Origin: an uncultured bacterium
GTDB taxonomy: Bacteria; Bipolaricaulota; Bipolaricaulia; UBA7950; UBA9294
NCBI GenBank assembly: GCA_903859225.1
Contig: CAIOLV010000001.1
Span: forward strand, 1 to 31,568
Reading direction: 5' to 3'
Length of the DNA: 31,568 nt
Shown here: piece after piece, positions 6,594-29,787 of the stretch
How the letters are laid out: each line of letters begins with the position of its first letter
Position numbering within the stretch: position 1 is the first letter of the stretch
The notes under the pieces: generated by a model
The model's database searches: none
What the model was told of the DNA's origin: nothing
Seen by the model: only the letters and a program-made list of their open reading frames with translations
Made by a program: the position numbers and the translations under genes

Positions 6594-6594
6594 C

Positions 6595-8241
6595 ATGCGT
6601 CGCCTGGCTCGCCGGGCGGTTGTCGTCGCCCTCGTGATGGTCGGGGTCGGTGGGTCGGCTCTCTTCGCGGCCGGCGTTGGCGGCGTCGTGTTCCTCGACA
6701 AGAACCACAACGGCGCCCTCGACAGCGGGGAGACAGGCGTGTCGGGCGCTGTCGTGAGCGATGGGTTGAACGTAGTGCGCACGGACGATGCGGGTCGGTT
6801 CTCGCTTCCAGACAACAACGGAGCACGGTTCGTTTTCCTCTCCACTCCGAACGGGATGAAGCCCTCGGCCGGTTGGTACCGCGCCGTCGCGGAGGGCGGC
6901 TCGTACGTATTCCCGCTGGAAACGCGCGACGAATCCGGCCCGCTCGTCTTTGCGCAGCTCTCGGACATTCACTACGCCCCGGACCCAGAGGCATTCTCCC
7001 GCGCGTTCGCGGATCGCGAGATGGCGTTCTTGCCCAACGGGACTCTCGATGGGCTCGTCGCCGAGATCAACCCCCTCGCGCCCGACTTCGTGATCCTCAC
7101 GGGCGACATCATCGCCAATGCGAAGGGGCCGGAGCTCGACGAGGTCAAGTCGTGGTTCACGACGATGGATGATGGGTTCGTGTCGCGATTCACGGTGCCG
7201 GTCTACGAGGCGATGGGGAACCACGACGAGGTGCGGGATCCGGCCGTGGACAAGGCAGTGTACGAAGATCACTTCGGCCCGACCTACTACTCGTTCAACG
7301 TGAAGGGCACGCACTGCGTCGTCCTCGATCTCCACCAGCTTCAGGGGACGTCCCAGATCTACTCGCTCAGCGCGGCGGAGCTTGACTGGCTGCGCCGGGA
7401 CCTGGCCCTGGTCGGTGCGAATGCGCCGATTCTCGTCTTCTGTCACGAGCCGACGCCCGACTGGGCACAGACGCCGGAGAACGCCGCGTTGTGGGACCTT
7501 CTCGCCGGCTCGAACATCACGGCGCTCCTGAACGGCCACTGGCACACGAACTTCGTCCTGCGTGAGGAGCCGTTCTACGAGCTCACGTCGGGCGCGGTCT
7601 GCGGTTCGTGGTGGGAAGGACCGAACCCGGACGGCACGGGCTTCGGGTACCGCATCTACGAGATGTCGCGGGGCCGACTAGCAAGCACGTGGCGCACGGT
7701 GGGAGCGAATGTCGTCTCGTTCACGTCCCCGACCGCGGCGGCTCTCACGTGGACCGACCGCCTGGTCGCCAGCGTATGGGGCGAGGCGGCGTCAGCGGCC
7801 TACTGCTGGGACGGCGGCGCGAACGTGACGATCGATGTCGCGTCGAACGGTCTCTGGAGCACGGCGGCCGGCAATCTGAACGTGGCAACGCTCCCGTCGG
7901 GCTACCACACGCTCACCATCACGTTCTCGATGACGAGTGGGGGACCGATCGTGGGTCGGCAGGCGTTCTACGTCTTCGTGCCGGGGCTGTCCCTCAGCGA
8001 TTTCATCGATCACCCCGAGGTGTTCCAGGGGAAAATGGTCGGGACGACGGCGCTCGAGGTGCGTGCCGTGATGGGAGCCGACATCTCGGCGACCGACGGC
8101 ACGAAGACCATCATCGTGGCTAAGTTCCCACTCTCGGTGGCGAAGGGAGATCGCGTTTCGGTGGTCGGCATGTACCGGGCGACGAGCGCGGATCCGATCA
8201 AGGCCTTTGACCTGATCTTCAGCGTCAAGCTTGCGAAGTAG
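6595..8241 (+). CDS. Secreted calcineurin-like phosphoesterase with N-terminal SdrD/CnaB-like domain and C-terminal extension
   Basis: Signal peptide MRRLARRAVVVALVMVG; GVVFLDKNHNG..D.GE.GVSGAVVSDG; binuclear motifs SDIH, TGDII, GNHD, CHEP, GHWH; CGSWWEGPNPDGT; SD GGGAGG; 548 aa. Confidence 0.85.
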   Translation: MRRLARRAVVVALVMVGVGGSALFAAGVGGVVFLDKNHNGALDSGETGVSGAVVSDGLNVVRTDDAGRFSLPDNNGARFVFLSTPNGMKPSAGWYRAVAEGGSYVFPLETRDESGPLVFAQLSDIHYAPDPEAFSRAFADREMAFLPNGTLDGLVAEINPLAPDFVILTGDIIANAKGPELDEVKSWFTTMDDGFVSRFTVPVYEAMGNHDEVRDPAVDKAVYEDHFGPTYYSFNVKGTHCVVLDLHQLQGTSQIYSLSAAELDWLRRDLALVGANAPILVFCHEPTPDWAQTPENAALWDLLAGSNITALLNGHWHTNFVLREEPFYELTSGAVCGSWWEGPNPDGTGFGYRIYEMSRGRLASTWRTVGANVVSFTSPTAAALTWTDRLVASVWGEAASAAYCWDGGANVTIDVASNGLWSTAAGNLNVATLPSGYHTLTITFSMTSGGPIVGRQAFYVFVPGLSLSDFIDHPEVFQGKMVGTTALEVRAVMGADISATDGTKTIIVAKFPLSVAKGDRVSVVGMYRATSADPIKAFDLIFSVKLAK

Positions 8242-8264: not shown

Positions 8265-9539
8265 ATGAGACGAGCAATGGGGATGCTGGGCATGGCGGCG
8301 CTGTTCGCGGCCACGGCCGCGGTGTGCGCCGGAGCGGTGACGCTGCAGTTCCTGACGCCGGCTTGGCAGGAAGACACGGTGACCGAGGTCGAGAACATCG
8401 TCGCGGAGTGGAATGCGGCGCGGCCGGATATCCAGGTGGAGATGGTCTCGGTGGCGTGGGAGAACATCAACGACTACCTCCTCACGAGCTTCCAGGCCGG
8501 ACAGGGACCGGATGTGATCCACCAGGACACGGTCATGTGTTACGAGTATGGTGTCCAGGGGTACGCGGAGCCGCTCAACCAGTATCTCGATGCCGCGACG
8601 CTGGCCGATACGCCCCAGGCGAGCTGGGACGGTGTCAGCGACGATCAGGGAAGCATCTACGGCGTCCCATTCCTGCAGGAAACGCTGGTCGTCTTCTACA
8701 ACAAGGCGATGTTCGCCACAGCGGGGATCACTCCGCCGGCCGACGGGATGGTCACGTGGGCCGAGCTGCGGGACTACGCGCTCCGACTGACAAAGACGGA
8801 TGCGAGCGGTCAGACGACGACGTGGGGGCTCCTGGCGCCTCTCGAACAGCGGCTTTGGTGGTGCCTTGTTGCGCAAAACGGCGGACAGGTCCTCGCGAAA
8901 CATGCCGACGGCACGTGGTACGTCGAGATCGACCAGGCGGCCCGGCAGGCGATCGAGTACTACACCAACCTGATTACGGTGGACCACGTCATGCCGCAGG
9001 ACGTCCTGAGCTATGACTTCACGAGCCTGCTCCAGGGCTTCAAGACGGGCAAGTACGCAATGTTTACTTTCGGATGCTGGGTCCGGAGCTGGATCAACAA
9101 CCTGACTCAGAACCAACTCGACTGGGGAATGCTCGAGGTCAAGGGTCCGGTGCGCAATGTCACGGAATCCGACCCGCAGGGCGTCTTCATCTACTCCGGC
9201 TCGGCTCACAAGGACGAGGCGGCGCAGTTCCTGCTCTACTTCACCAACACCGAGAACCAGGCGCGCATCGCGAAGGCCGACTGGCTCTTCCCCATTCGCC
9301 AGTCGGCGCTCGCACGCCCGGAGTTTCGGACAACACAGGAACAGTGGAATGTCCTCTATCAATGGCTTCCGTTCGCGGAGGATGTGAAGCCGAAGATGTT
9401 CGGCTTCTTCGGCTGGGAATGGCAGTCATTTATCCCGCAGATTGAGCAGGTCATCCTTGGATCGAAGACCCTGGATAAGGCGCTGCAGGCGGCGACGGAC
9501 GATGGGAACGAGTACCTTCGCCGCATGGGACTTCAATAG
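8265..9539 (+). CDS. ABC transporter substrate-binding protein (CUT1 sugar/nucleoside family)
   Basis: Signal peptide; GQGPDVI, IYGVPF, VFYNKAMF, TWAEL, FKTGKYAMF; SD GGAGGT; permeases nearby; 424 aa. Confidence 0.92.
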   Translation: MRRAMGMLGMAALFAATAAVCAGAVTLQFLTPAWQEDTVTEVENIVAEWNAARPDIQVEMVSVAWENINDYLLTSFQAGQGPDVIHQDTVMCYEYGVQGYAEPLNQYLDAATLADTPQASWDGVSDDQGSIYGVPFLQETLVVFYNKAMFATAGITPPADGMVTWAELRDYALRLTKTDASGQTTTWGLLAPLEQRLWWCLVAQNGGQVLAKHADGTWYVEIDQAARQAIEYYTNLITVDHVMPQDVLSYDFTSLLQGFKTGKYAMFTFGCWVRSWINNLTQNQLDWGMLEVKGPVRNVTESDPQGVFIYSGSAHKDEAAQFLLYFTNTENQARIAKADWLFPIRQSALARPEFRTTQEQWNVLYQWLPFAEDVKPKMFGFFGWEWQSFIPQIEQVILGSKTLDKALQAATDDGNEYLRRMGLQ

Positions 9540-9626
9540 GAGAGAGACGAAGGAGGTGGTTCGGCGCGCGCAGAGGTTGGCTGGAAGGGGATGTCTAGAA
9601 GGCTTTCGAGGGGGAAGGAGGACCAC

Positions 9627-10148
9627 GTGAAGCGAACGTTATGTCTCGGTGTGCTCTTGGCCGCACTTGTGGGCGCCACGGTGTGGGCCACCGGCACGGT
9701 GCCGACGGGGGATGTCGTCCTGACGATTTCGGGGCCAATGATTCTGATGAATAGGTGGGACGCGGCAGCTGGTGCTGGCGTGTGCGACTTCGACATGGAC
9801 ATGCTGAAGGCCGTGCCTGTCACAACCTACACGGTCACCGATCCGTGGCTGGGCGAGAAGACCTATACGGGAGTCCGTCTGTCCGATCTGCTCAAGTGGA
9901 TTGCCGTGGACCAGTACGCGGTGAAGGTCGTCATTGTCTGCTCGGACGCGGCGGAATTCGTTATCCAGATTAAGGATGCGGCACAGTACCCGATCATGAT
10001 CGCGTATGCATCCAACAGCAAGGTTATCAAGGCGGGCTCCGGCGGCCCACTGAAGGTCGTGTACCCGTACCAGATCGAGGGCGTCGAAGCTCTCTACGGC
10101 CCCGATAACTGGGCATGGTACGTGGTTGGGATTCGCGTGGAGTACTAG
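9627..10148 (+). CDS. Secreted sulfite-oxidase/molybdopterin-binding-fold protein (COG3915-like)
   Basis: Signal peptide MKRTLCLGVLLAALVGATVWA; VVLTISG, FDMDML, TDPW, YTGVRLSDLL, GPLKVVYP, WAWYVVGIRVE; SD AAGGAGG before GTG 9627; 173 aa. Confidence 0.7.
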   Translation: MKRTLCLGVLLAALVGATVWATGTVPTGDVVLTISGPMILMNRWDAAAGAGVCDFDMDMLKAVPVTTYTVTDPWLGEKTYTGVRLSDLLKWIAVDQYAVKVVIVCSDAAEFVIQIKDAAQYPIMIAYASNSKVIKAGSGGPLKVVYPYQIEGVEALYGPDNWAWYVVGIRVEY

Positions 10149-10167
10149 GCGCAAAGGGCCTTTGGCT

Positions 10168-10194
10168 GAGGGAGGGGGCAGCGCCCCCTCCCTC
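10168..10194 (+). other. Strong intergenic stem-loop (mRNA stabiliser or attenuator candidate)
   Basis: GAGGGAGGGGGC-AGC-GCCCCCTCCCTC: perfect 12-bp stem, 3-nt loop, no U-tract; preceded by CAAAGG-G-CCTTTG (10152-10164). Confidence 0.7.
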
Positions 10195-10248
10195 GCGAGA
10201 TCCACGCCATTGCCGGCGTGTCCGGCACGGAACACGGAGCGGGAACCT

Positions 10249-11292
10249 ATGCCGCGCAGCCAGAATGAGATGAAGATCGTCGAGCTTGTGGAGCTCGGAC
10301 GCGTGGAGACGCGGACGGCTCCGGTCCCGGTCCCGGGTCCGGGCGAGGCACGCCTGCGCGTGCGCGCCGTCGGACTCTGCGGCACGGATGTGAAGGCCTA
10401 CCGGCGCGGGCACCCCTATTTCAAGCCGCCGTGCGTGCTCGGCCACGAGGTCGTCGGAGCGATCGACGCCGTCGACGATGCGGTTCGAGGACTTGCAGTG
10501 GGCGAGCGCGTGGTCTGTGCGCCCTACGCGGAGTGCGGTGGGTGTCCGATCTGCCGCCGCGGCGTCGGCGAGCTGTGCGAGCACAAAGCATTCATTGCCG
10601 GCGCGCTGCAGGAGTACTTGATCCTCTCCGCCGACATCCTCGCCCGAGGCACGTTCCGCGTCGCGGGCGCGATGTCCGACGCCGTTGCGACCCTCGCTGA
10701 GCCACTGGCGTGCGCGATGAACGGCATCGAGCGGGCCGGCGTCCGGCGGGGCGACCGGGTTCTCGTTGTGGGTGGCGGTCCGATGGGCGCGCTGTTGGCC
10801 ATCGTCGCGCGGACGCTGTCTCCGCACGTCCTGGTGAGTGAAGTGAACCCGGCGCGCAGCGAGCATCTGCGGCGCCTCGGTCTCTCGGTCGTCAATCCCT
10901 CAGAAACGCCCCTCAGCGAAGCGCTGTCTCGGGCCTTCAGCGTGCCAGAAGCGGACCGGGTGTTGATCGCTGTCGGTGACCGCGGCGTGGCAGAGGATGC
11001 GATCGGGCTCACGGCAGCTGGAGGCACAGCGCTCCTCTTCGGCGGGTTGCCGAAAGGGGAGCGGTTGTCGCTCGACGCGTTTGCCATTCACTACCGTGAG
11101 GTGGGAGTCGTTGGGAGCTTTGGGTTCCAGGTTCGGCACTTCCGAAACGCCGTCGAGTGGATGGAGCAGCATCCCGGCGCGCTCGATGGAGTCGTCACGG
11201 CGTCGGTCCCCTTTGCCGAGGCCGCGCGGGCCTTTGTCGAGGCCGCACAACCTGATGGACTGAAGACGGTGATCCGGTTTGAAGAAGCCTAG
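10249..11292 (+). CDS. Zn-dependent medium-chain (polyol/sorbitol-type) dehydrogenase
   Basis: GLCGTD, GHE, structural Zn site CGGCPICRRGVGELC, EPLAC, GGGPMG; start at 10249 or 10270. Confidence 0.9.
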   Translation: MPRSQNEMKIVELVELGRVETRTAPVPVPGPGEARLRVRAVGLCGTDVKAYRRGHPYFKPPCVLGHEVVGAIDAVDDAVRGLAVGERVVCAPYAECGGCPICRRGVGELCEHKAFIAGALQEYLILSADILARGTFRVAGAMSDAVATLAEPLACAMNGIERAGVRRGDRVLVVGGGPMGALLAIVARTLSPHVLVSEVNPARSEHLRRLGLSVVNPSETPLSEALSRAFSVPEADRVLIAVGDRGVAEDAIGLTAAGGTALLFGGLPKGERLSLDAFAIHYREVGVVGSFGFQVRHFRNAVEWMEQHPGALDGVVTASVPFAEAARAFVEAAQPDGLKTVIRFEEA

Positions 11293-12169
11293 GCGGGAAC
11301 GCGCGGCGCGGTCGTACGTGGAGGAGAAGAGGGCCCTGCCGTTCGTGGCGCCCGCCCTCATCATCCTTTGCTTCGTGAGCCTATATCCTCTGGTTCAGGG
11401 GATCTCCCGCGTCCTGTACTCCTTCCGTGCGCTGACGGGGAAGAACGTCTACTCCGGGCTGCAGAACTTCGTCCTTCTCTTCCGCGATTCCGTCTTCGTT
11501 CACGCACTCCTGAACAGCCTCGTCTGGACCGTGACCAGTGTCGCGGCGATGTTCTTCGTGTCCTTTCTGCTGGCGACGATGCTCAACTCGCGGCATCTTC
11601 GCTTCCGTCGTGCGTTCCGGACCGTCACGCTCATTCCCTGGGCGCTGCCCGGCGTCGTCGTGTCGCTTATCTGGCGGTACATCTTCCTCTCCGGTGGGCC
11701 GCTCAACACCGCCCTTTCGGGACTTGGTGTGACCTACCCCCCGGCGTGGCTCATCGACCCGCACGTCGCCCTTTGGACGTGCATCGTCGCCAACATCTGG
11801 ATGGGAATTCCGTTCGTCACGATCATGATCCTCGCCGGGCTGCAGTCGCTCGAAGGAGACATTCTCGAGGCGGCGGCGATCGACGGCGCGAGCTACTTGC
11901 AGACGCAAGTGCGGATTGTTGTTCCGAGCATCAAGAAGGTCATTCTCATCATTCTCACGTTGGAGTCGATCTGGACCTTCAACTCGTTTGACATCGTCTT
12001 CGTCCTGACCAAAGGAGGACCGGCCAACGCGTCGATGACGCTCCCTCTCTACGCCTACACCTGGGCGTACGGCTCTCAGCAGGCCGGATACGGCGCGGCG
12101 ATCGGCATCATCATGCTGCTCATCTTGCTGAGCGTCGTCGTCCTCTACATTCGCGAGGTGCTGCAATGA
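11279..12169 (+). CDS. ABC permease (MalF/UgpA-like)
   Basis: Hydrophobic helices; EAA loop ILEAAAIDGAS; FDIVFVLTKGGP; start uncertain (TTG 11279 or GTG 11318). Confidence 0.9.
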   Translation: MKKPRRERAARSYVEEKRALPFVAPALIILCFVSLYPLVQGISRVLYSFRALTGKNVYSGLQNFVLLFRDSVFVHALLNSLVWTVTSVAAMFFVSFLLATMLNSRHLRFRRAFRTVTLIPWALPGVVVSLIWRYIFLSGGPLNTALSGLGVTYPPAWLIDPHVALWTCIVANIWMGIPFVTIMILAGLQSLEGDILEAAAIDGASYLQTQVRIVVPSIKKVILIILTLESIWTFNSFDIVFVLTKGGPANASMTLPLYAYTWAYGSQQAGYGAAIGIIMLLILLSVVVLYIREVLQ

Positions 12170-12993
12170 GGATGCATCCGGTCAAGCAAGTCCTCCTCCA
12201 CGTCGCGGTTCTCGTGATGATCGCCTTCCTCGTGTTCCCCGTCCTCCTCCTCGTGTTCAACTCCCTCAAGACGCAGACCCAGATCTTCGCGTCTCCGATG
12301 GGGATTCCACACGGCGTGACCTGGGACAACTTCCGCACGGTCATTGCAGGGGGCACGTTTCTGGTCAACCTTCGGAACTCGGTCATCGTCGCGTTCTCGA
12401 CCGTAATCCTCGCCGTCATCGTGACCGCGCCGGCCGGCTACGCCCTGTCGCGGTTCAAGTTCCGTGGGCGGACGGCGTTCTCGATGTGGCTCCTGGCGAC
12501 TCAGGCGTTTCCCGGAATCATCATGGTGCTTGGGCTGTTCACCGTGTTGAAGGTGTACGGACTGATCAACCAGCTGCCGGGGCTCGTGATCATGCACACG
12601 AGCTTTGCTCTTCCGTTCTCGATTTGGCTCCTCAAGGGGTACTTCGACAAGATCCCGATTGACCTGGAGGAGGCGGCGAGGATCGACGGCTGCACGCGCC
12701 TACGGGCGCTCGTGAGCATCATCCTGCCGCTCTCCGTGCCCGGTCTCCTGGCGGTGGCCACGTTCTCGCTCCTCCTGTCGTGGAATGAGTTCTTCTTCGC
12801 CCTCGTCATCATGCGCACGAACGAGAGCTGGACGTTGCCGGTATACCTCGCTCGATTCCTCGGATCAGGTGGCGTCGTACAATGGGGGCCGCTGTCGGCG
12901 GCTGCGCTGCTCGTCACGATCCCCGTGTTCATCCTCTTCCTCTTGGGACAACGGTATCTCGTTTCGGGACTGACGGGAGGGGCCATCAAGTGA
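12166..12993 (+). CDS. ABC permease (MalG/UgpE-like)
   Basis: GYALSRFKFRG, EAA loop LEEAARIDGC, SWNEFFFAL; ATGA overlap. Confidence 0.93.
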   Translation: MRMHPVKQVLLHVAVLVMIAFLVFPVLLLVFNSLKTQTQIFASPMGIPHGVTWDNFRTVIAGGTFLVNLRNSVIVAFSTVILAVIVTAPAGYALSRFKFRGRTAFSMWLLATQAFPGIIMVLGLFTVLKVYGLINQLPGLVIMHTSFALPFSIWLLKGYFDKIPIDLEEAARIDGCTRLRALVSIILPLSVPGLLAVATFSLLLSWNEFFFALVIMRTNESWTLPVYLARFLGSGGVVQWGPLSAAALLVTIPVFILFLLGQRYLVSGLTGGAIK

Positions 12994-14045
12994 CAGGTAC
13001 CGAACCTCTCGGCCGAATCGGAGTGGTTGCAAATCCTTGTGCAGGCGCCGGGCCGGACGTCCTCCGTGCCGTGCTCTCCGGCCTGTTCAGCCGCCTTCGC
13101 GAGGGTGACGTCGTGCTGAACGAGCGGACGTTCGAGGCCGCGGAGGCCGACGCCTGCGGGCTCGAGTGCACGAAGGTCCATGGACCGGCGGGCGATGCGC
13201 GACGTCTCACCGAGGCGCTGCTGGCCGCGGGCGTAGAGACCGTGATCGGCGTCGGGGGCGACGGGACACTGGGCGAGATCGCGACGGCGCTCGCGCTCGG
13301 CGAGAACGGCGTGCGGCTCTTGGGCATCGGAATCGGGTCATCGAACGTCGGCCCGCTGGTCGGAGCTTCGTTCGGAGAGCTGGACGCGTTCTTCGACGCT
13401 CCGTGGGTTGGCGTCGCGGTGCACGCGCTCGACGTCCGCGTGGGCGGGACGCAGGTGGGAATGGCGTTCCACGACGCGGGCCCCGCAAACACCTACTTTG
13501 GCACCCGGAACGGCCGCAGAGTGGATCTGGACGCAGCGGCCGCACTGCACGGCATCGATCGGCCGGCCGAGCCGGCGTCGGTTTGCGGCGCGGGGACCTG
13601 GATTGCGAAGAACGGTCGGAGGTGTCTATCGGGGCAGGAGACGGCAGGCGGCCAAATCGTCGCTTCGCCGCTCAACGATGTCGGCGAGTGCCGCGGCAAA
13701 GCGGTGAGCGGTTTCCTGTGCTGGGGACCGTATGTCGGGTGCCGTGGGGTCGTCGCCGTGTCGAGCGCGGTGATGATCCGCACCCGGCTGTCGCGTGAGG
13801 ACCTTTGCGCGGCGGAGCCGCTCCGGCTGTTCCATCTTGGGCTCGCCCCGGAGGACGTCGTCGAATTCGGCGGGCTCCCGCGTGGCGCGGTCGTCGTGGT
13901 GGACGGGACGCCGCGCCTCGAGCTGGCGCCGGAGATGACGGTATCCATTCGCGCCTTGGAGGGTGCCGTCGTCTCGATTCGTCGGGAGTCGGGGCGCGTG
14001 GACGTGAGCATGAAGGAGGAGGGATGCAATACCGCGGGATCGTGA
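12990..14045 (+). CDS. NAD-kinase / diacylglycerol-kinase-fold protein (AcoX-like), substrate unknown
   Basis: IGVVANPCAG and GVGGDGT motifs, GSSN; GTGA overlap with the permease stop; SD GGGAGG; 351 aa. Confidence 0.65.
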   Translation: MTGTEPLGRIGVVANPCAGAGPDVLRAVLSGLFSRLREGDVVLNERTFEAAEADACGLECTKVHGPAGDARRLTEALLAAGVETVIGVGGDGTLGEIATALALGENGVRLLGIGIGSSNVGPLVGASFGELDAFFDAPWVGVAVHALDVRVGGTQVGMAFHDAGPANTYFGTRNGRRVDLDAAAALHGIDRPAEPASVCGAGTWIAKNGRRCLSGQETAGGQIVASPLNDVGECRGKAVSGFLCWGPYVGCRGVVAVSSAVMIRTRLSREDLCAAEPLRLFHLGLAPEDVVEFGGLPRGAVVVVDGTPRLELAPEMTVSIRALEGAVVSIRRESGRVDVSMKEEGCNTAGS

Positions 14046-14938
14046 TCGAGGACACCTTCTGCGAGTGCACGGACATCTACACGGCGCGCCTTATCCTGAC
14101 GGCGGCGACCGAGGGAATTGCGATGGCCGAAGCGAGCTACTTGTGCGGCTTCGGGATCATCACCGCGTCCCCCATTCAAGGCTGCATCGAAGGGTTCGTC
14201 TCGCCCATCCTGACCCCGGACGGCCGTGCAGGCGTGGCTCTCCAACTGAACGCTCCGACGGCCGTGGGATTCGAGACATTCAAGCACGCGCTTCTCGACC
14301 GCCTCTTCATCTTCCCGCATCTCCCGACGTGCTCTCTGTTCGACGGCGCGGCGAGCGCGCCCGTCGAATGGGTCGTCGACCTTGCGGCGCGCGTCTCACG
14401 CTGGGGCGACGGGTTCGAGGCCAACGATCGCGTGGGGGACCGTGAAGTGGTGCGGATGCCGATCATGACCGGCGACCAGTACATCGAGCGCCGCGTGCAC
14501 GTCGTCGCGGGCACCGATGGCGTGCTGGAGGTCTTCGGAAAGGACGAAGCGTCGTGCATGCAGGGAGCGATGGAGGCAGCGGCGTGGGTCGTGCGCGATG
14601 CGCCGGGCGTCGCGGTGTTCAACTACCCAGTCGGCGGGATCAGCGGCGCCAAGGTCGGAGGGAACCGATACAAGGGCGAGGGTGTGACGATCAATGAGCC
14701 GTTCTGCCCGACGCTGCGGAAGAGCGTGCCGACCAAGATCCCACAAGGCGCGAACTGCGTCATCGAGTTCCCGCTCGTCGCGACATCGCTGGAGGCGATG
14801 AAGGTCGGACTGGGCGTGGCGATCAAGGCGTTCGTCCGCACGGCGGGCATCGTCGCGATCACGGCGCCGTCGTTCGGCGGCGCGTGGGGCGGCAGAAAGC
14901 TGGCCCTGCGCGATGTCGTCCCGGCGGACAAAGGCTAG
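14024..14938 (+). CDS. ftr: Formylmethanofuran:tetrahydromethanopterin formyltransferase homologue (divergent)
   Basis: Colinear Ftr signatures IEDTF.E, AR...TAA, GFG, TPDGR.G, LLDR, PT..FD, GDGF, KVG, FCPT, CV.E, FGG..G; SD AAGGAGGAGG; 304 aa. Confidence 0.85.
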   Translation: MQYRGIVIEDTFCECTDIYTARLILTAATEGIAMAEASYLCGFGIITASPIQGCIEGFVSPILTPDGRAGVALQLNAPTAVGFETFKHALLDRLFIFPHLPTCSLFDGAASAPVEWVVDLAARVSRWGDGFEANDRVGDREVVRMPIMTGDQYIERRVHVVAGTDGVLEVFGKDEASCMQGAMEAAAWVVRDAPGVAVFNYPVGGISGAKVGGNRYKGEGVTINEPFCPTLRKSVPTKIPQGANCVIEFPLVATSLEAMKVGLGVAIKAFVRTAGIVAITAPSFGGAWGGRKLALRDVVPADKG

Positions 14939-14952
14939 GGGCGGGAGGCTCG

Positions 14953-15966
14953 ATGGCGCGGATGACGAGTGCAGAGCAGGCGTGGGCCGCAGCGCGGGTG
15001 ACCGAACTGGTCGCCTCGCTGTTGCGCGATGCGCCCGTGCTCGACATCACATCGCACCGCGGCCCGAGCGGCGCCGCGATCGTCGACTGCGGGGTCGACG
15101 TCCGCGGTTCATGGGAGGCGGGGCGCCGCATCGCCGTTGTGTCCCACGCCGGGATGATGAACGCGACGCTTGGGGTCTCCGACGTCGCTCGATTGTCGCT
15201 CCCCGAATTCGTCGGCGATTCGTGGCGCCCGTACTTGTCGACGTACGGGCTGCAGGTGTCCTTCGCGCTCTCCGAGGTCGATCCCGCGATCCGTATCTCG
15301 GGCCCGGTGCGTGCGGCGATCGACGACGGGCTCAGGACAACGTCCTCCGCGGTCGAGGGCGCCGCTTCTCGCGACACCAATCCCTGGGGTGTTGCGGTGG
15401 TCGAGTCCGACCGCCTGCCGGACGAGGCGGTCGTTGCGGCGATCGGTCGCCGGGCGGGCCTGCGGCCGGACGAGCTCACGCTTCTCGTGGTCCCATCGAG
15501 GAGCCTTGCCGGCGTGACGCAGATCGCTGGACGGCTGAACGAGTGTGTCCTCTTCACGCTCGACCAGTCGCTCGGACTGGATCCGAAGTCCGTCCTGGGA
15601 ATCCTCGGCGCAGTCCCGATCGCTCCGTGCGGCGCCGGCGCGTTCGCCACCCAGGATGACATGATTCACTACGCCGGGCGGGTGACGATGGTGGTCGATG
15701 CCCCCGCGAGCTGGAGTCTCCAGGTCGTGGCAGACGGGCTCGTCTTTCGCTCGTCGTCTGCCTACGGCCGGCTCTTCTCCGAACTCCTGGCCGAAGCAGG
15801 CGGCGTCTTTGAAGCGATTCCGGGACTCAACGATCTGAACAAGGTTGCGCAGATCGCCGTCGTCGACCGACGCACCGCGAAGATGGCGACGGCAGGCGCC
15901 GTCGATGGGGCGATCCTCGCCTCCGCCGCGAAGCGGGCCGGAAGGGGACGCGATGAACTCCCGTGA
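14953..15966 (+). CDS. mch: Methenyl-tetrahydromethanopterin cyclohydrolase homologue (divergent)
   Basis: IVDCGVDVRGSWEAG, SGPVRA, ESDRLPD, P..L.LLV.P..S..G..QI.GR..E, G.VPIAP, DDMIHYAG, S.S.YGR.F; SD GGGAGG; 337 aa. Confidence 0.85.
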   Translation: MARMTSAEQAWAAARVTELVASLLRDAPVLDITSHRGPSGAAIVDCGVDVRGSWEAGRRIAVVSHAGMMNATLGVSDVARLSLPEFVGDSWRPYLSTYGLQVSFALSEVDPAIRISGPVRAAIDDGLRTTSSAVEGAASRDTNPWGVAVVESDRLPDEAVVAAIGRRAGLRPDELTLLVVPSRSLAGVTQIAGRLNECVLFTLDQSLGLDPKSVLGILGAVPIAPCGAGAFATQDDMIHYAGRVTMVVDAPASWSLQVVADGLVFRSSSAYGRLFSELLAEAGGVFEAIPGLNDLNKVAQIAVVDRRTAKMATAGAVDGAILASAAKRAGRGRDELP

Positions 15967-17815
15967 GATCATCCCGCACAGGATCATCACCGTGGACCTT
16001 GCCAGCGGGTCGACGCGCGAGGAGACCTGTGGTACGAGCGACCTCCAGGCCTTCCTCTGCGGGCGCGGAGCCGCGGCGCACCTCCTGGCGCAGCGCTCGT
16101 TCTGGCGCCACGATCCGCTCGATCCGGCGTCGCCGTTCGTGATGGCGAGCGGCCTGCTCAACGGAACCCCGTGGCCGGCGTCGACGCGCGTCCATATGGC
16201 CTTTCGGTCTCCGCTGACCGGGATCTACGGCTATGCGAACTCCGGCGGATCGCTCGGGCCGCACCTCGCCGCGCACGGGATCCTCGCTCTCGAGTTGGTC
16301 GGACGCGCGGATCGCCCCACGACCGTCGAGGTGAGCGATGCCGGCATCCGACTCTGCGACGCCGAGGACCTCTGGGGAAGAGGCGTGTCTGAGACCACGT
16401 CCTCGCTCCGCGCGGGAAGGCCGTTGGCGGCCGTGGCGTGCATCGGCGTGGCCGGCGAGCGTCGCGTCCCGCTCTCCGCTGTGATGGTGGACGGCGAACG
16501 CGCCGCTGCGCGCTGCGGGGGAGGCGCGGCCCTCGGTGCGAAGAATGTGAAGGCCGTCGTGGTTCACGGAGGAGCCAGGGCGCGGTTTCCGGAGGCGTTC
16601 CTTGCGAGCTGCCGCGCGGCGACGGCGCGGATTCTGGCGACACCCGGCATCGCCGACCTGTCCCGCTGGGGCACTCCGCTCCTCGTCGCGATCAAGAATG
16701 AGCACGGCGACCTCCCCGCGATGAATCACCGCCGGGGCCAAGTCCCGTTCGCCGACCGAATCGACGCCGATGCCCTCGAGGCCTACCGCGTCGAGACGAA
16801 GGGCTGCCCCGGCTGCCCGATCCGCTGCGGTCGCGTCTCGGAGGTCCGATCGGGCGCCCATCGCTCTCGCAGTGCGGGGCCCGAGTACGAGACCGTGGAC
16901 GCCCTCGGTCCGGACTGCCTGTGCGGAGACGTCGAGGCGCTGCTTCATGCCAACGCCCTGTGCAACGAGCTCGGTCTCGACACCATCTCGGTCGGCGCGA
17001 CGATCGCGTTCGCCATGGAGTGCCACGAGAACGGCCTGCTGGACGACGGGGAGTTGGACCTTTCGTGGGGAAACGGAGACACGGTCGTCGCGCTCGTCGA
17101 GCGGATGGCCCGTCGAGAGGGTATCGGCGAATTGCTCTGCGGCGGGGTCCGAGCCGCGGCCCTCGAACTCGGACCGGCCGCCGCGCCCTACGCGCTCCAC
17201 GTGAAGGGGCTCGAGATCCCAGGACAGGAGCCGCGGGTGGCGAAGAGCTTCGGGTTGGGGCACGCCACGTCGAATCGGGGCGCCGATCATCTCTACGCGC
17301 TCCCGACCGTCGATGTCGCCGGACTGGACGGCGCGGCTCGGCGGCTGCTTCCCGACGTCTATCCGCGCGTGCTCGATCCGGACGACGAGACGTCGAAGGC
17401 GGCGCTCGTGCGGTTCGGGGAGGACTACTGCGCCGTCTCCGATGCCCTCGGCGTATGCAAATTCACGACGACGGAGATGTACGCGCTCGATCCGGAGCAT
17501 CTGGCCGACGCGCTCGGAGTGCTCGGGATGTCCTTCGACGCGGCGCACCTCCTCGAGGCGGGAGAGCGCATCGTCAACCTCGAGCGGCTCCTGAACGCGC
17601 ACCTCGGCGTCGAAGCGCACGACGACACGCTGCCGGCGCGGTTCACCGACGAGGCGCTGTGCGTCGAGCGCCAGGGTGGGGTGGACGCCCACCGGATTCA
17701 TTCACTCTCGTCAATGATCGAGGAGTACTACCGCCTGCGCGGCTGGGCGGCGGACGGGCTTCCGACAGCGCTGACACTGGAGCGGCTCCGCCTCGCCGAG
17801 TGGAGGCCATCGTGA
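15953..17815 (+). CDS. aor: Tungsten aldehyde:ferredoxin oxidoreductase family protein, copy 1
   Basis: RSPLTG, NSGG, CPGCPIRC, GPEYET, NELGLDTIS, RGADH, LGVCKF, YYRLRGW; 620 aa. Confidence 0.92.
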   Translation: MNSREIIPHRIITVDLASGSTREETCGTSDLQAFLCGRGAAAHLLAQRSFWRHDPLDPASPFVMASGLLNGTPWPASTRVHMAFRSPLTGIYGYANSGGSLGPHLAAHGILALELVGRADRPTTVEVSDAGIRLCDAEDLWGRGVSETTSSLRAGRPLAAVACIGVAGERRVPLSAVMVDGERAAARCGGGAALGAKNVKAVVVHGGARARFPEAFLASCRAATARILATPGIADLSRWGTPLLVAIKNEHGDLPAMNHRRGQVPFADRIDADALEAYRVETKGCPGCPIRCGRVSEVRSGAHRSRSAGPEYETVDALGPDCLCGDVEALLHANALCNELGLDTISVGATIAFAMECHENGLLDDGELDLSWGNGDTVVALVERMARREGIGELLCGGVRAAALELGPAAAPYALHVKGLEIPGQEPRVAKSFGLGHATSNRGADHLYALPTVDVAGLDGAARRLLPDVYPRVLDPDDETSKAALVRFGEDYCAVSDALGVCKFTTTEMYALDPEHLADALGVLGMSFDAAHLLEAGERIVNLERLLNAHLGVEAHDDTLPARFTDEALCVERQGGVDAHRIHSLSSMIEEYYRLRGWAADGLPTALTLERLRLAEWRPS

Positions 17816-19725
17816 CGGCATTCCACGGCGGCTACGTCGGTGTCGTGTTGGACGTCGACCTCACAAAGCGACGCGTCGCATCGCGGCCCCTCGATCCCGC
17901 TCTCGCGCGCCGCGTCCTCGGGGGAAGCGGGCTGGGAGCAGAGGTTCTCTGGGACGAGGTCGGGCCCGACGTGGATCCTCTGTCGCCGGAGGCCGTCCTC
18001 ATCGTGGCGACCGGACCGCTCACGGGCACGCCGTGGCCGTGCTCCGGCCGAACGGAGGCCGTCGCCCGTTCGCCGCTGACCGGCATCTACGGCGACTCGA
18101 ATGCAGGGGGAACGTTCGGTCCTGGGCTCAAGTCTGCGGGATTCGATGCGATCGTCGTCCGCGGCGGCTCGACGGACCCGGTGGTTCTGCGCATCGCCGA
18201 CGGGCGCGCGACGATCGACGACGCGGGCAGCGTCTGGGGTCTCGACACGGTCGAGACGGAGGCGGCATTGCGTGCTCGGTACGCTGCGCCTGCGCTGCAG
18301 GTGGCGTCGATCGGACCGGCCGGCGAGCGCGGCGTTCGCTTCGCGTCGATTCAGGCGACGCCCAATCGAAGCTTCGGCCGATGCGGACTCGGCGCGGTGA
18401 TGGGTGCGAAAGGTCTGAAGGCGATCGCGGTGTCCGGCTCGAGGCGCGTGCCGATCGCCGAGCCGGCGGCGTTCGCAGAGCTGGCGAAGACGATGCACGC
18501 CCGCATCCGAGCTAACGCGATGTTCCCGGCGTGCTCGCGTTACGGCACTCCCGGTCTCGTGCGGGTCGTGAACGAGATCGGTCGCTTCCCGACGCGCAAC
18601 TTCCAGGACGGCGAGTTTGCCGGAGCCGAGGCGATCAGCGGAGAAGCGCTGCGAGAACGGTTCTTCGTCGCGGACGCGGGATGCTTCGCCTGTCCGGTGC
18701 GTTGCGACAAGGTGTACCGCATCTCGAGCGGACGGTTTGCCGGCGTCGAGACGTCGAGCGTCGAGTACGAGACGCTCAATGCCTTCGGGGCGGGGCTCGG
18801 GAACGCGGATCTCGAACTCATCCTCTACGCGAACGAGCGCTGCGACCGCCTGGGGCTCGACACGATCTCTGCCGGCCGGGCGATCGGCTTCGCGATGGAA
18901 CTGGTCGAGCGCGGCGTCGTGTCGCGCGAGGATCTCGGAGGACTCAGCGGGATGTGGGGAGACGAAGCGACGATCGTCGGGCTCCTAGACTGCATCGCCG
19001 CTCGCGACGGGATCGGCGACGTGCTGGCCGACGGGGTCCGCCGAGCCGCCGTAGCTTTCGGTGCCGCGGCGGCGCCGTACGCGATGGAGGTCAAAGGGAT
19101 GGAGATCCCTGCGCAGGACGGACGCGCGCAGCAGTCGATGGGACTGGCGCACATCACCTCGAACCGCGGCGCGGATCACCTGAAGGCGTTTCCGACGATC
19201 GACGAGACCGGGAACCCTGATGAAGTCGCGCGGCGGTACGGGTCGCAGTACCTGCCGGAGATGGCCGATCCCCACGCGACGCGGCACAAGGCGCTGCTCG
19301 TGAAGGACGGCGAGGACTTTGGTGCGGTCGTCGACTCTGTTGGGGTCTGCAAATCCGGCGGGACGTTCGTCATGGCTGAGATCTACTGGACCGACATCGC
19401 GGCTGGCGTTTCCGCCGCCACCGGGTGGCGGCTCGAAGAGTCGGAGCTGCGGGTGATTGGAGAACGGATCGTCAACCTGACCCGTGCCTACAACGGCCGC
19501 CTCGGGGTGACGCGGGCCGACGATCGTCTTCCGGACCGTCTGACTCACGAGCCATCCCCGGCCCGCGGAGCGCGCGGCCACGTGGCGCACGCTGAGGAGC
19601 TGCTCGACGAGTACTACGGCCTGCGCGGCTGGGATGCTGCACGGGGATGGCCGACAGAAGAGACGCTCGACCGCCTCGGGCTCGGCGATGCGCGGCTCGC
19701 TCTCTGGGGGCAAGGCGATGGATAG
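17812..19725 (+). CDS. aor: Tungsten aldehyde:ferredoxin oxidoreductase family protein, copy 2
   Basis: LGGSGLG, RSPLTG, SNAGG, GRCGLGAVMGAKGLKAI, CFACPVRC, EYET, DRLGLDTIS, RGADH, VGVCK, YYGLRGWD; GTGA overlap; 637 aa. Confidence 0.93.
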   Translation: MTAFHGGYVGVVLDVDLTKRRVASRPLDPALARRVLGGSGLGAEVLWDEVGPDVDPLSPEAVLIVATGPLTGTPWPCSGRTEAVARSPLTGIYGDSNAGGTFGPGLKSAGFDAIVVRGGSTDPVVLRIADGRATIDDAGSVWGLDTVETEAALRARYAAPALQVASIGPAGERGVRFASIQATPNRSFGRCGLGAVMGAKGLKAIAVSGSRRVPIAEPAAFAELAKTMHARIRANAMFPACSRYGTPGLVRVVNEIGRFPTRNFQDGEFAGAEAISGEALRERFFVADAGCFACPVRCDKVYRISSGRFAGVETSSVEYETLNAFGAGLGNADLELILYANERCDRLGLDTISAGRAIGFAMELVERGVVSREDLGGLSGMWGDEATIVGLLDCIAARDGIGDVLADGVRRAAVAFGAAAAPYAMEVKGMEIPAQDGRAQQSMGLAHITSNRGADHLKAFPTIDETGNPDEVARRYGSQYLPEMADPHATRHKALLVKDGEDFGAVVDSVGVCKSGGTFVMAEIYWTDIAAGVSAATGWRLEESELRVIGERIVNLTRAYNGRLGVTRADDRLPDRLTHEPSPARGARGHVAHAEELLDEYYGLRGWDAARGWPTEETLDRLGLGDARLALWGQGDG

Positions 19726-21052
19726 GCGGATCGTGCTCGGGGCAGCGGTTCTCGCGGGCGCGGACGCGTCCCTGCGACTGGATTGCGGCGTGCTGATCGA
19801 AGGCGCGCGGATCGTCGCCGTGGGCCCGAACGCCCAGTTGACCGCTCACGCGGGCGATGCCGAGATCCTCGACGCGCGCGACCTCATTCTCTGCCCCGGA
19901 TGGGTGAACGCCCATCATCACGCTTACGGCCTTCTCGCCCACGGAATCCCGATCGCGGGCGACGCGCCTCGCGGGTTCGACCGCTTCCTTTCCGACCTCT
20001 GGTGGCCGCGCGTCGAGGATCGGCTTGACGGGAGCATGATCGAGGCGGCGATGGCGGTCTCGTGCGCCGACATGATTCGCTCGGGGTTCACGGCGTTTTG
20101 TGACGTCCTGGAGGCGCCGCTGGCCGGGACGGGCGTTCTCGACCTCGAAGCGCGCGCCGTCGAACGCGCCGGGTTGCGGGCCGCCCTCTGCCTTGAGGCA
20201 TCGGAGCGACATGGCGCCGAAGTTGGCCGGCAGGCGCTGTGGGAGAACGAGCGGTTCGCCCGGGAGCGTGGGCGCGACGGACTCGTTCGCGGGATGCAGT
20301 GCCTTCACACGAGCTTCACCTGCTCGGAGGGGTTTGTGCGCGCGGCGAAGGAGAGCGCGGCCCGCGCCGGCTGCGATCTGCATCTTCACCTCTCGGAAAG
20401 CGCCTACGAGCCAAAGGAGTGCCTGCGGCGTCACGGCGTGCGCCCGGTTCACTGGTACGACCAACTGGGGTTCTGGGACGAGACGGTGCTGGCTTCGCAG
20501 GTCGTGGCGGTGACCGACGACGAGATCGCGCGGCTCGCCGAGCGTCGCGTCCGCATCGCCCACATGCCGCTCTCGAACTGCGAAGTAGGAGGAGGCATCG
20601 CGCCCATCCCGCAGATGATCGAGCGCGGCCTCGAACCAGGACTCGGAACCGACGGGTACATCAACGATCCGTTCGAAGTGATGCGCGGCGCGTTCCTCCT
20701 CCACAAAGGGGCGGCGCGAGATGCGTCGGTGATGCCGGCGCGGACGGTGCTGGGCATGGCGACGGCGTGGGGCGCCCGGGCGATCGGGTTTCCCGAGGCG
20801 GGAGCCCTCGCGCCGGGGCACCCGGCCGACCTCATCGGAATCGACGACGCTCCGGGCACGCCGCTCACAGCAGACAACGTCGCGGACCAGCTCGTTCTCT
20901 TCCGCGGGCGCGGCGACGTCAAGCTGACGATCGTGGCCGGTCGAGTGCTCTTCCGTAACGGAGTGGTCGAGACGATGGACGAAGGAGCCGTCCGAGCGGC
21001 CGCGCGCCTCGAAGTGGCGCGACTCTGGGCGGGAAGGGGGCGCGGTGGTTGA
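19718..21052 (+). CDS. Amidohydrolase (SsnA / guanine-, MTA- or pterin-deaminase-like)
   Basis: PGWVNAHHH, HLHLSE, GLGTDG, G.L.PG.PADL; 444 aa. Confidence 0.88.
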   Translation: MDRRIVLGAAVLAGADASLRLDCGVLIEGARIVAVGPNAQLTAHAGDAEILDARDLILCPGWVNAHHHAYGLLAHGIPIAGDAPRGFDRFLSDLWWPRVEDRLDGSMIEAAMAVSCADMIRSGFTAFCDVLEAPLAGTGVLDLEARAVERAGLRAALCLEASERHGAEVGRQALWENERFARERGRDGLVRGMQCLHTSFTCSEGFVRAAKESAARAGCDLHLHLSESAYEPKECLRRHGVRPVHWYDQLGFWDETVLASQVVAVTDDEIARLAERRVRIAHMPLSNCEVGGGIAPIPQMIERGLEPGLGTDGYINDPFEVMRGAFLLHKGAARDASVMPARTVLGMATAWGARAIGFPEAGALAPGHPADLIGIDDAPGTPLTADNVADQLVLFRGRGDVKLTIVAGRVLFRNGVVETMDEGAVRAAARLEVARLWAGRGRGG

Positions 21053-22100
21053 TCTGCGAGTCGACCTTGCCGGCCTCACGCTCGTGAATCCGCTTGTGCT
21101 GGCGTCGGGCCCTCTGTCGTGGAACGGTGACGCGATCGTCCGCGCGCACTGCGCCGGAGCGGCGGCGATCGTGACGAAAACGATCCGCCGCGCTGCGGCG
21201 CGTTCGCCGCGGCCGCACATCGCCGCAACTCCTCACGGGGTTCTGAACACGGAGCGTTGGTCGGACCTCGAAGCGAGGCAGTGGATCGACCACGAGATCC
21301 CGCGAGCGAAGGACGGGGGCGCAACGGTGATCGCGAGCCTGGGACTCGCCGTGGACGACGTCGTGGCGCTGGCCGAAGAACTCGAGCGGGCAGGAGCCGA
21401 TGCCCTCGAGGTCGTGTCGTACGACGAGGCCGTCCTCCCGAGCATGGTGAGCGCAGCGGTCGAGCGAGTGCGGATCCCCGTGCTTGCGAAGCTTGGCGTC
21501 AACGGGTGCGATCTCGCAGGCACCGCGCGACGGTGCGCCGAATCCGGCGCGAGCGGCATCACGGCGATCGACTCCGTCGGCCCGACGTTGCGCGTCGACC
21601 TCGCGCGTCGCCGCCCCGTTCTCGGAGCAGATTCCGCATGGTGGTCCGGTCCGGCGATCCTGCCGATCGCGCTGCACGCCGTGCACGTCCTCCGCGGCGC
21701 CGTCGCCGTGCCCATCGTGGGGACGGGGGGCGTGGCGGATGCAGACGCGGCGATCGAGATGCTGTTCGCCGGGGCCAGCGCCGTCGGGCTGTGCAGCGCT
21801 CCTCTCGTTGAGGGCCTCGGCGTCTTTTCGCGGATGCGCGAGCGGATGGCACAGCGTTTGGACGAGCTCGGCATCGCGTCCGCCCATGATGCGATCGGCG
21901 CGATGGAACGAGAGACTGCCGCGGGGTTCGCAATGGCGTTGGACGATGCGGCGTGCACGCACTGTGGCGCCTGCGTTCGGGTCTGTCCATACGCTGCGCG
22001 GCGAGGTCCTGGCGTCGTCGAAGCCGCGTGCCGCGGCTGCGGGTTGTGCGTCTCCATCTGCCCGGCAGGCGCGCTGGCGTGGGAAAGGGGTGAACGATGA
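21045..22100 (+). CDS. Dihydroorotate/dihydropyrimidine dehydrogenase (PreA)-like FMN barrel with C-terminal 2x[4Fe-4S]
   Basis: NPLVLASGP, VTKT, SGPAILP, IVGTGGV, AGASAVG; CTHCGACVRVCP and CRGCGLCVSICP; 351 aa. Confidence 0.85.
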   Translation: MVDLRVDLAGLTLVNPLVLASGPLSWNGDAIVRAHCAGAAAIVTKTIRRAAARSPRPHIAATPHGVLNTERWSDLEARQWIDHEIPRAKDGGATVIASLGLAVDDVVALAEELERAGADALEVVSYDEAVLPSMVSAAVERVRIPVLAKLGVNGCDLAGTARRCAESGASGITAIDSVGPTLRVDLARRRPVLGADSAWWSGPAILPIALHAVHVLRGAVAVPIVGTGGVADADAAIEMLFAGASAVGLCSAPLVEGLGVFSRMRERMAQRLDELGIASAHDAIGAMERETAAGFAMALDDAACTHCGACVRVCPYAARRGPGVVEAACRGCGLCVSICPAGALAWERGER

Positions 22101-29600: not shown

Positions 29601-29787
29601 CTTAGCCGTAGCGGAGTCGCGAGATGCTGTTTCCCCTCGACGGGCGACCGCTGTAGTCTGCGGTGCGGACGGCGTAGGACGAGAATCGGTACCGTGTCTC
29701 ATGCGTGATGGTCCGTCCCGCGGGACGCGGCCGGATGCCAGTTTCGGATTCGGACGGCGGCACGGGCGCCGCTCTGAGGAGGGTACG

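Follow-up and report, generated by a model that had tools for sequence, protein, structure and literature searches.

Ftr and its bacterial counterpart FhcD (EC 2.3.1.101) move an N-formyl group via a tetrahedral intermediate that is stabilised by a glutamate, and Mch hydrolyses a cyclic amidinium carbon, that of methenyl-tetrahydromethanopterin (methenyl-H4MPT), to an N-formyl amine. The presence of the two enzymes is taken to indicate methanogenesis, methanotrophy or H4MPT-dependent methylotrophy. In riboflavin and F420 biosynthesis ArfA, the archaeal GTP cyclohydrolase III, opens a purine at the N-CH=N carbon to a formamido-pyrimidine, which the formamide hydrolase ArfB (EC 3.5.1.102) deformylates to a ribosylamino-pyrimidine. 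PurH is both IMP cyclohydrolase and AICAR formyltransferase and acts on the C2 amidine carbon of the purine with folate as the formyl carrier. In this study we analysed a stretch of 31,568 nucleotides, the window, which is contig CAIOLV010000001.1, positions 1 to 31,568, of assembly GCA_903859225.1 from an uncultured bacterium of the Bipolaricaulota (GTDB lineage Bipolaricaulia, UBA7950, UBA9294). It carries a gene for an Ftr-like protein that adjoins a gene for an Mch-like protein. Judged by its sequence, the Ftr-like protein is very probably a functional, re-specialised Ftr-fold enzyme that does not work with methanofuran or H4MPT. Like Ftr/FhcD it has the full-length two-lobe fold and is paired genetically with an Mch homologue, but unlike Ftr/FhcD it lies in a catabolic operon with a LacI regulator and an ABC importer, and its hosts, as judged from five carrier genomes, are without H4MPT and methanofuran markers and without the Fwd/Fhc partners.

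Fold and catalytic glutamate of the Ftr-like protein

14024..14938, + strand: Ftr-like formyl enzyme, 304 amino acids (PF01913 and PF02741, AlphaFold2 model, clade motifs, ATG preceded by a Shine-Dalgarno sequence)

The ATG of the Ftr-like gene at 14024 is preceded by a strong Shine-Dalgarno sequence (SD), GAAGGAGGAGGG, and the gene shares its first 22 nt with the end of the upstream kinase-like gene. The ATG of the Mch-like gene lies 14 nt past the Ftr-like stop and has its own SD. Because of this overlap, the short gap and the SDs, these genes are regarded as translationally packed in one operon. Both Ftr lobes span the full length of the protein with scores above the gathering cut-offs (80.3 bits for PF01913 and 69.2 bits for PF02741). 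However, the scores against the NCBIfam equivalog and subfamily models were only about half of the cut-offs, that is 154.6 against 292.6 for TIGR03119 and 166.4 against 297 for NF002554. Longer, fused forms of the protein were searched for and none was found, and a search of the ESM Atlas returned generic Ftr clusters only.

The initial annotation of this gene, made from the sequence without database searches, had claimed that the Ftr fold and one catalytic acid were retained, and both parts of this claim hold. The AlphaFold2 (AF2) model, built on an alignment of 89 sequences, had a pLDDT of 94.8 and a pTM of 0.92. When it was superposed on the four solved Ftr/FhcD chains (1FTR/2FHJ, 1M5S, 1M5H and chain D of 6S6Y) the TM score was 0.88-0.90 and the root-mean-square deviation was 2.0-2.3 A, at 29-31% identity. 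In the HMMER alignment E248 of the Ftr-like protein is the equivalent of Glu245 of the Methanopyrus kandleri enzyme, and this residue is present in 77 of the 77 members of the clade that is described below. Besides the fold core and this Glu, the elements shared with canonical Ftr are TPDGRPG, GDG, K210 and the N..CP residues N224 and C228-P229. The conserved, protonated Glu252 of FhcD has been described as stabilising the tetrahedral oxyanion, and the active site has been placed at the homodimer interface (PMC6926001). A catalytic role for Ser209, which the initial annotation had brought in as a proposed one, was not found in the literature search, and only the Glu has literature support.

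Replaced motifs define a separate clade

Residue-level HMMER alignments were made to 1FTR, 1M5S, 1M5H and 6S6Y_D, and the motif pairs were read against M. kandleri Ftr (1FTR). The changes that had been noticed by eye in comparison with M. kandleri Ftr were all reproduced: SASKVGS becomes SGAKVGG, so that Ser209 is replaced by Ala209, GFGTSVIMCPAEAG becomes GFGIITASPIQGC, GQCVMTAPT becomes FIFPHLPT, GGNF becomes DGVL, EIVING becomes EFPLVA with E248 kept, and AGNFGG becomes APSFGG. All four structurally characterised enzymes have the canonical motifs and none of them has the changes. In the bacterial FhcD (6S6Y_D), for example, the motifs are GFATSVIGCGAEAG, GQCILTCPG, GGN, SGSKVGG, LEIVID and AGNYGG. 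Thus in the Ftr-like protein the whole canonical set (GFATSVIxCxAEAG, GQCxLTxPT, GGNxx, SG/A-S-KVGS, YEIVING and AGNYGGKL) is replaced. If such substitutions were common in active Ftr/FhcD enzymes they would say little about function, but they were absent from the four solved enzymes and from 33 other representatives of the family.

A word-indexed search of 5.8 billion proteins gave about 80 clusters with 46-99% identity to the Ftr-like protein, nearly all of which come from metagenome-assembled genomes (MAGs) labelled as Bipolaricaulota, Atribacteria or Spirochaetota. When 1.84 billion representatives were searched exhaustively with HMMER, the Ftr superfamily as a whole proved to be small (241 clusters at 50% identity), and there was a gap around the query's group, where identity falls from 45% to 35%. 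In a maximum-likelihood tree with 37 other representatives the group was monophyletic with an SH-aLRT of 100. When 77 clade members (44-99% identity) were compared with the 33 Ftr representatives that the tree defines as their sister group, 49 sites were shared and 28 sites were conserved in both groups yet different. The replaced motifs were near-invariant within the clade, and the states at the most telling positions were as follows.

Position 209: Ala in 76/77 clade members; in the sister group Ser in 30, Thr in 2, Met in 1 and Ala in 0
Position 248: Glu in 77/77 clade members; Glu in 32 of the sister group
Position 13: Cys in 76/77 clade members; Cys in 4 of the sister group
Position 15: Cys in 94% of clade members; Cys in 2 of the sister group
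Position 54: Cys in 76/77 clade members; Cys in 0 of the sister group
Position 99: His in 77/77 clade members; His in 0 of the sister group
Position 103: Cys in 77/77 clade members; Cys in 1 of the sister group
Position 165: Asp in 100% of clade members; Asp in 1 of the sister group

The clade signature consists of CEC (13-15), IITAxPIQGC, PHLPTC, GTDGxLE, GGISGAKVGG, IEFP and TAPSFGGxW, which are conserved in 85-100% of the 77 members and all of which are found in the window protein. Several residues that are hydrophobic and conserved in the canonical enzymes are polar or nucleophilic in the clade (F16T, I47T, A36E, G165D, T99H, T103C, G54C, A13C and A15C). This pattern of sites is that of a presumably altered substrate pocket about a kept catalytic centre. 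The new residues C13, C15, C54, H99, C103 and D165, which together with Ser209Ala set the protein apart from Ftr/FhcD, are candidates for a nucleophile or a metal site in formamide hydrolysis. The polar and nucleophilic replacements would suit a polar riboside better than methanofuran, and they are compatible with hydrolysis or with covalent catalysis. Neither this clade nor its operon was found described in a literature search, and they are not covered in the survey of Chistoserdova 2016.

A second divergent Ftr-like group (P0085, P0087, P0119 and P0126) was also seen in the tree, as sister to the canonical enzymes. It too is without an equivalent of Ser209, having NSAK or NAIK there or a deletion of the segment.

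Cofactor pathways of the hosts

Five carrier genomes of 90-92% completeness were searched for cofactor pathways, and control genomes matched as expected. There was no match in the five carriers for beta-RFAP synthase of H4MPT synthesis (TIGR00144) or for MfnB of methanofuran synthesis (PF04476), and the search of the same carriers for FwdA/FhcA (TIGR03121) gave only generic amidohydrolase fragments with scores far below the cut-off. Formyl-tetrahydrofolate synthetase (formyl-THF synthetase, FTHFS) was found in all five.

Metagenome pipelines label members of this clade 'formylmethanofuran--tetrahydromethanopterin N-formyltransferase', and the clade occurs in no fewer than five phyla of anaerobes from the subsurface. 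Since clade members occur in bacteria without coenzyme-synthesis markers, such hits are no evidence of H4MPT-linked one-carbon (C1) metabolism.

Purifying selection and linkage to Mch

14953..15966, + strand: Mch-like cyclohydrolase (PF02289; TIGR03120 144 bits against a cut-off of 229)
L031 (G006:C15:59207-79206), 10001-10909, - strand: leftover Ftr-like copy of G006 (P0082), 49% identity

The Mch-like protein keeps the R-x-x-E of Mch, with AGRLNEC where 1QLM has ARVVETG. Among 61 relatives the Ftr-like gene was carried by 10 of the 36 genomes of the same family and by none of the 24 from other families of the class, and PF02289 was found in exactly those genomes that have an intact Ftr-like gene and was always adjoining it. 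The dN/dS among same-genus Ftr-like orthologues was 0.07-0.14, which is approximate at a dS of about 0.8-1.1. The single exception to the pairing is G006, a genome of the same genus with an Ftr-like open reading frame (ORF) and no Mch. In G006 the operon is deleted between the flank of aminotransferase and phosphoesterase genes and the ribokinase, and the Ftr-like ORF alone is left. This copy has lost the clade motifs while the Glu is still present, it is on a long branch of the tree, and at the protein level it has evolved 3-5 times faster, its dN against congeners being 0.40-0.46 as compared to 0.08-0.15 among the intact copies. The decay of the G006 copy indicates that the Ftr-like protein loses its constraint once the operon, including Mch, is gone.

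The operon in the window

The Ftr-like and Mch-like genes belong to a long co-directional operon of 20 genes that runs from a LacI regulator at its head to a ribokinase at its end. The other genes of this operon are given below.

4852..5850, + strand: LacI-family regulator, operon head (PF00356 and periplasmic-binding-protein domains)
5850..6593, + strand: DhnA/DeoC-type class I aldolase, start approximate (PF01791; NF005556 203 bits, below cut-off)
6577..8241, + strand: large metallophosphoesterase, MetallophosN/C (Pfam; 15 loci)
8265..9539, + strand: CUT1-type solute-binding protein of an ABC importer (PF01547/PF13416)
9591..10148, + strand: secreted PruR-type pterin-binding protein, SUOX fold without the Mo-ligand Cys (matches 7RKB and 7KOS)
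10258..11292, + strand: Zn-dependent polyol/alcohol dehydrogenase, start approximate (PF08240/PF00107; 18 loci)
11279..12993, + strand: two ABC permeases, described as the most conserved operon genes (PF00528 twice)
12990..14045, + strand: DAGK/NAD-kinase-like kinase, start approximate (PF00781, weak)
15953..19725, + strand: two tandem AOR-family (tungstopterin) oxidoreductases (PF02730 and PF01314, twice; 10-12 loci)
19718..22100, + strand: SsnA-like amidohydrolase Amd1 and DHOD/PreA-like Fe-S flavoprotein, genes of a sub-variant (6 loci)
22097..23425, + strand: Amd2 amidohydrolase, a purine/pterin-type deaminase (cog0402-like), third core gene (PF01979)
23409..25963, + strand: GlcD-like FAD protein and its CCG/Fe-S partner (PF01565; PF02754; FAD4 in 14 loci)
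25976..28311, + strand: ADP-ribosylglycohydrolase-family protein and ribokinase (PF03747; TIGR02152)

The LacI regulator holds the equal position in five other loci (L005, L007, L010, L020 and L023). The metallophosphoesterase is probably extracytoplasmic. For the CUT1 binding protein the PDB sequences yielded weak matches only, to sugar-binding proteins, and the ADP-ribosylglycohydrolase-like protein gave no match in the PDB sequence search. The ribokinase passes TIGR02152 with 307.6 against 299.65, and the pair of ADP-ribosylglycohydrolase and ribokinase recurs in L001, L004, L005, L014, L018 and L020. In type A operons the DAGK-like kinase is always immediately upstream of the Ftr-like gene. 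The gene for Amd2 follows 7 kb further down in the same operon and accompanies the Ftr-like and Mch-like genes in 22 of 29 loci, and the AORs are placed after Mch or at the operon end depending on the locus. The GlcD-like ORF of the window (23409-24611) is 400 amino acids long as compared to 468-472 in L001 and L005, and the next ORF begins upstream of the start of its homologues. At the operon end a dihydropyrimidinase/hydantoinase gene was observed on the opposite strand (28221-29891, - strand; TIGR02033 389 bits, just below the cut-off of 393), and a hydantoinase gene is near the operon in one other locus only.

The proteins of the window were searched by tblastn against 29 loci, many of which are cut by contig ends, and all the genomes compared are MAGs. 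The number of loci with a match was as follows.

Core genes: Ftr-like 28, Mch-like 23, Amd2 22
Permeases 18, kinase 18, alcohol dehydrogenase 18
Binding protein 15, phosphoesterase 15, SUOX-fold protein 15
GlcD-like protein 14, AORs 10-12, ribokinase 10

A like operon with its order largely kept was found in other Bipolaricaulota and in bins labelled Atribacteria, Neomarinimicrobiota and 'Thermotogae', and related clusters are carried by Hadesarchaea and Bathyarchaeia. From Bipolaricaulota through to Bathyarchaeia the genes for the Ftr-like protein, the Mch-like protein and Amd2 are kept, along with ribokinase/PfkB, aldolase, alcohol dehydrogenase and ABC genes. There is also a second architecture, in which one Ftr-like gene, one to three Mch paralogues and Amd2 occur in an Atribacteria contig, in L004, in L006 and in Bathyarchaeia (35% identity). 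It is without the SUOX-fold protein and the AORs and brings an FGGY kinase, DUF2193, an M19 peptidase or Bmp-type nucleoside transporters. The L004 and Bathyarchaeia loci keep a PfkB kinase, and those of Bathyarchaeia also an aldolase, a dehydrogenase and ABC genes. On this evidence the operon is a conserved catabolic import operon and not a C1 module. In L028 and L029 (Bathyarchaeia), L004 and L002 it was observed that one Ftr-like gene is accompanied by 2-3 Mch paralogues, DUF2193, an FGGY kinase and an M19 dipeptidase, and in L004 an MtmB-like gene adjoins the operon. DUF2193 is a family of Fe-S proteins (PMC12375889).

The AORs were also looked at across the family. Each of the five genomes of 90% completeness or more has 6-11 genes of the AOR family, and the MoaA C-terminal domain, MoaC, MoaE and MoeA were not found in any of these five. 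AOR genes were found in 35 of the 36 genomes of the family and in 6 of 6 of another family, the latter including single-contig genomes that are 96-99% complete, whereas in the same set (G000-G060) the respective counts were 6/36 and 0/6 for MoaC and 8/36 and 0/6 for MoeA. The presence of many AORs without the genes of molybdopterin synthesis suggests cofactor scavenging or a non-canonical tungstopterin route.

Evidence for the class of substrate

Two groups of genes bear on what is imported. The closest solved relatives of Amd2 are deaminases of the methylthioadenosine/S-adenosylhomocysteine/adenosine type, among them 4F0R, and 8-oxoguanine deaminases, and the Atribacteria version of the operon is wired to Bmp-type (nucleoside-type) ABC importers, which together point to a purine nucleoside. 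A gene of a ribosyl-hydrolase family and a true ribokinase also recur in the operon. The small secreted SUOX-fold protein, by its sequence, points to a pterin. It matched 7RKB (E 1.8e-11) and 7KOS (E 4.5e-10), both of which are titled 'Pterin Binding Protein', and strong homologues of it track the operon, being present in 10 of 10 intact carriers and in three other genomes. The PruR family of periplasmic pterin-binding proteins has been described (PMC11194511), with the structures 7KOS/7KOU and 7RKB. Like PruR, the window protein is small and secreted (a signal peptide is present), has the SUOX-type fold, and keeps the PW motif in place of the Mo-ligand Cys and the GPLxxxYPY block, here GPLxVVYPY. 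Unlike PruR of Proteobacteria, which partners a c-di-GMP enzyme, it is encoded next to the binding protein of an ABC importer, within a catabolic operon. The equivalents of Asn102 and Tyr104 of PruR align poorly in the window protein and therefore its ligand may be another bicyclic heterocycle. As pterins and guanine share the 2-amino-4-oxo-pyrimidine face, the two lines of evidence are compatible with one compound class. Salvage of tungstopterin for the AORs was considered as the main role of the PruR-like protein and was rejected, because AORs without molybdenum cofactor genes are a family-wide pattern whereas the PruR-like gene tracks the operon.

Proposed function and alternatives

The initial annotation had proposed that the carrier-binding surfaces are changed such that the formyl donor or acceptor is a different one, or that the formyl group is hydrolysed off and not transferred. 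This proposal is supported by three independent lines of evidence, namely the clade-invariant motif changes, the lack of H4MPT and methanofuran markers in the hosts, and the catabolic operon. We consider it somewhat more probable than its opposite that the Ftr-like and Mch-like proteins work in a LacI-controlled operon that imports and degrades a bicyclic N-heterocycle of purine or pterin type which carries ribose, and that the Ftr-like protein takes off a formyl group from it. The substrate class, the order of the steps and the choice between hydrolysis and transfer are what we infer from the gene content. The compound would be captured outside the cell by the PruR-type binder and the CUT1 binding protein, or by the Bmp nucleoside-type binder in Atribacteria, and then imported, after which Amd2 would take off the exocyclic amino group. 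The Mch-like protein would hydrolyse the ring at an N-CH=N (amidine) carbon and so leave an N-formyl amine, and this carbon would be C8 or C2 in a purine, or that of a methenyl-type adduct in a pterin. The Ftr-like protein would strip this formyl group with Glu248 stabilising the tetrahedral oxyanion, and the formyl group would either be released as formate by reaction with water or be passed to an amine acceptor, for example THF. Ribose may be recovered by the ADP-ribosylglycohydrolase-type enzyme and the ribokinase, and the remaining fragments may be processed by the dehydrogenase, the kinase, the aldolase and the AORs. Bipolaricaulota, Atribacteria and Bathyarchaeia would then have a catabolic pathway, as yet unstudied, that acts on a compound of the purine or pterin type.

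The pair may work like ArfA and ArfB, but the folds are unrelated, and ArfA and ArfB are biosynthetic, metal-dependent and act on nucleotides whereas the context here is catabolic. A comparison of the same kind can be made with PurH, which if run in reverse would be equivalent to the proposed scheme in the case where THF takes up the formyl group. PurH differs in that its folds are unrelated too and in that it is biosynthetic and acts on ribotides, and the substrate here need not be inosine or IMP. A bolder possibility, which we hold only tentatively and think less probable than its opposite, is that the Ftr-like and Mch-like proteins and the cog0402 deaminase are the core of an undescribed hydrolytic route by which strict anaerobes of several phyla cut amidine (N-CH=N) carbons out of the purine- or pterin-type ribosides that they import. 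The Ftr fold, in origin that of a transferase working through a ternary complex, would now serve either as a formamide hydrolase or covalent formyl enzyme of the Cys-His-Asp type, or as a transferase that passes the formyl group to THF. This would amount to degradation of purine- or pterin-type rings independent of xanthine dehydrogenase, and with transfer to THF, organisms that use the Wood-Ljungdahl pathway would be spared the ATP that formate activation costs.

Several points weigh against the proposed degradation of a riboside. The absence of the cofactor pathways comes from MAGs of 90-92% completeness. The PruR-like gene and the AORs are confined to type A operons and are missing in the versions of Atribacteria, L004, L006 and Bathyarchaeia, and hence they may serve another purpose. 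Opening of a neutral purine ring normally needs a metal enzyme and Mch has no metal, and we know of no precedent for hydrolysis by an Ftr fold. The data fit a purine as well as a pterin, and hydrolysis as well as transfer.

Other explanations have to be weighed against this one. One is that the Ftr-like protein is a genuine H4MPT-type enzyme which acts on methanopterin or sarcinapterin scavenged from dead methanogens, where the pair strips the C1 unit (methenyl, formyl) and the operon dismantles the rest with a phosphodiesterase, an alpha-ribosyl hydrolase and ribokinase, a ribitol dehydrogenase, kinase and aldolase, a 2-hydroxyglutarate-type dehydrogenase, a pterin deaminase, and AOR for the aryl-acetaldehyde. 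Methanopterin alone would account for most of the genes, that is the two H4MPT-family enzymes, the PruR-type binder and the ribokinase as well as the ADP-ribosylglycohydrolase-family, GlcD/CCG-like dehydrogenase, metallophosphoesterase and polyol dehydrogenase genes; methanogenic sediments and reservoirs are typical habitats of the hosts, and archaea that use H4MPT (Bathyarchaeia and Hadesarchaea) hold related clusters. Nevertheless, we regard it as rather improbable. The 28 differing conserved sites are in both lobes, whereas an enzyme that had kept H4MPT binding would be predicted to change on the methanofuran side only. C1-loaded H4MPT is a minor and labile pool and neither enzyme is needed for oxidised methanopterin, and the nucleoside-type Bmp transporters of Atribacteria and the closeness of Amd2 to adenosine-type deaminases do not fit it either.

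The pair could also be a THF-linked C1 pair, a methenyl cyclohydrolase and a formyltransferase, which feeds the Wood-Ljungdahl pathway and is in the operon by chance, as THF resembles H4MPT and formyl-THF synthetase is present in 5/5 of the carriers tested. Such a housekeeping C1 role is disfavoured because the pair is accessory (10/36 genomes of the family and 0/24 elsewhere in the class), is always embedded in the same catabolic operon, and the Ftr-like protein decays upon loss of the operon, and thus we give this explanation little credence. A further alternative is a protein without catalysis, either a relic or one with a structural or binding role only. It would be in line with scores far below the equivalog cut-offs and with the loss of the canonical Ser209 and many other motifs. 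We consider this very improbable in view of the strong purifying selection, the intact fold modelled at high confidence, and the lack of variation at the new motifs and at the catalytic Glu among 77 sequences of several phyla; moreover, a true relic, the G006 copy, looks quite different.

In-frame stop codons in operon genes

In three genomes an operon gene was observed to be interrupted. There is an in-frame TGA inside the otherwise full-length Ftr-like gene of G012 (G012:C19:23427-24332), and the PruR-like gene has one in-frame TAG in G003 (G003:C60:26082-26642) and another in G053 (G053:C60:2892-3407). These stops could be due to assembly error or to recoding.

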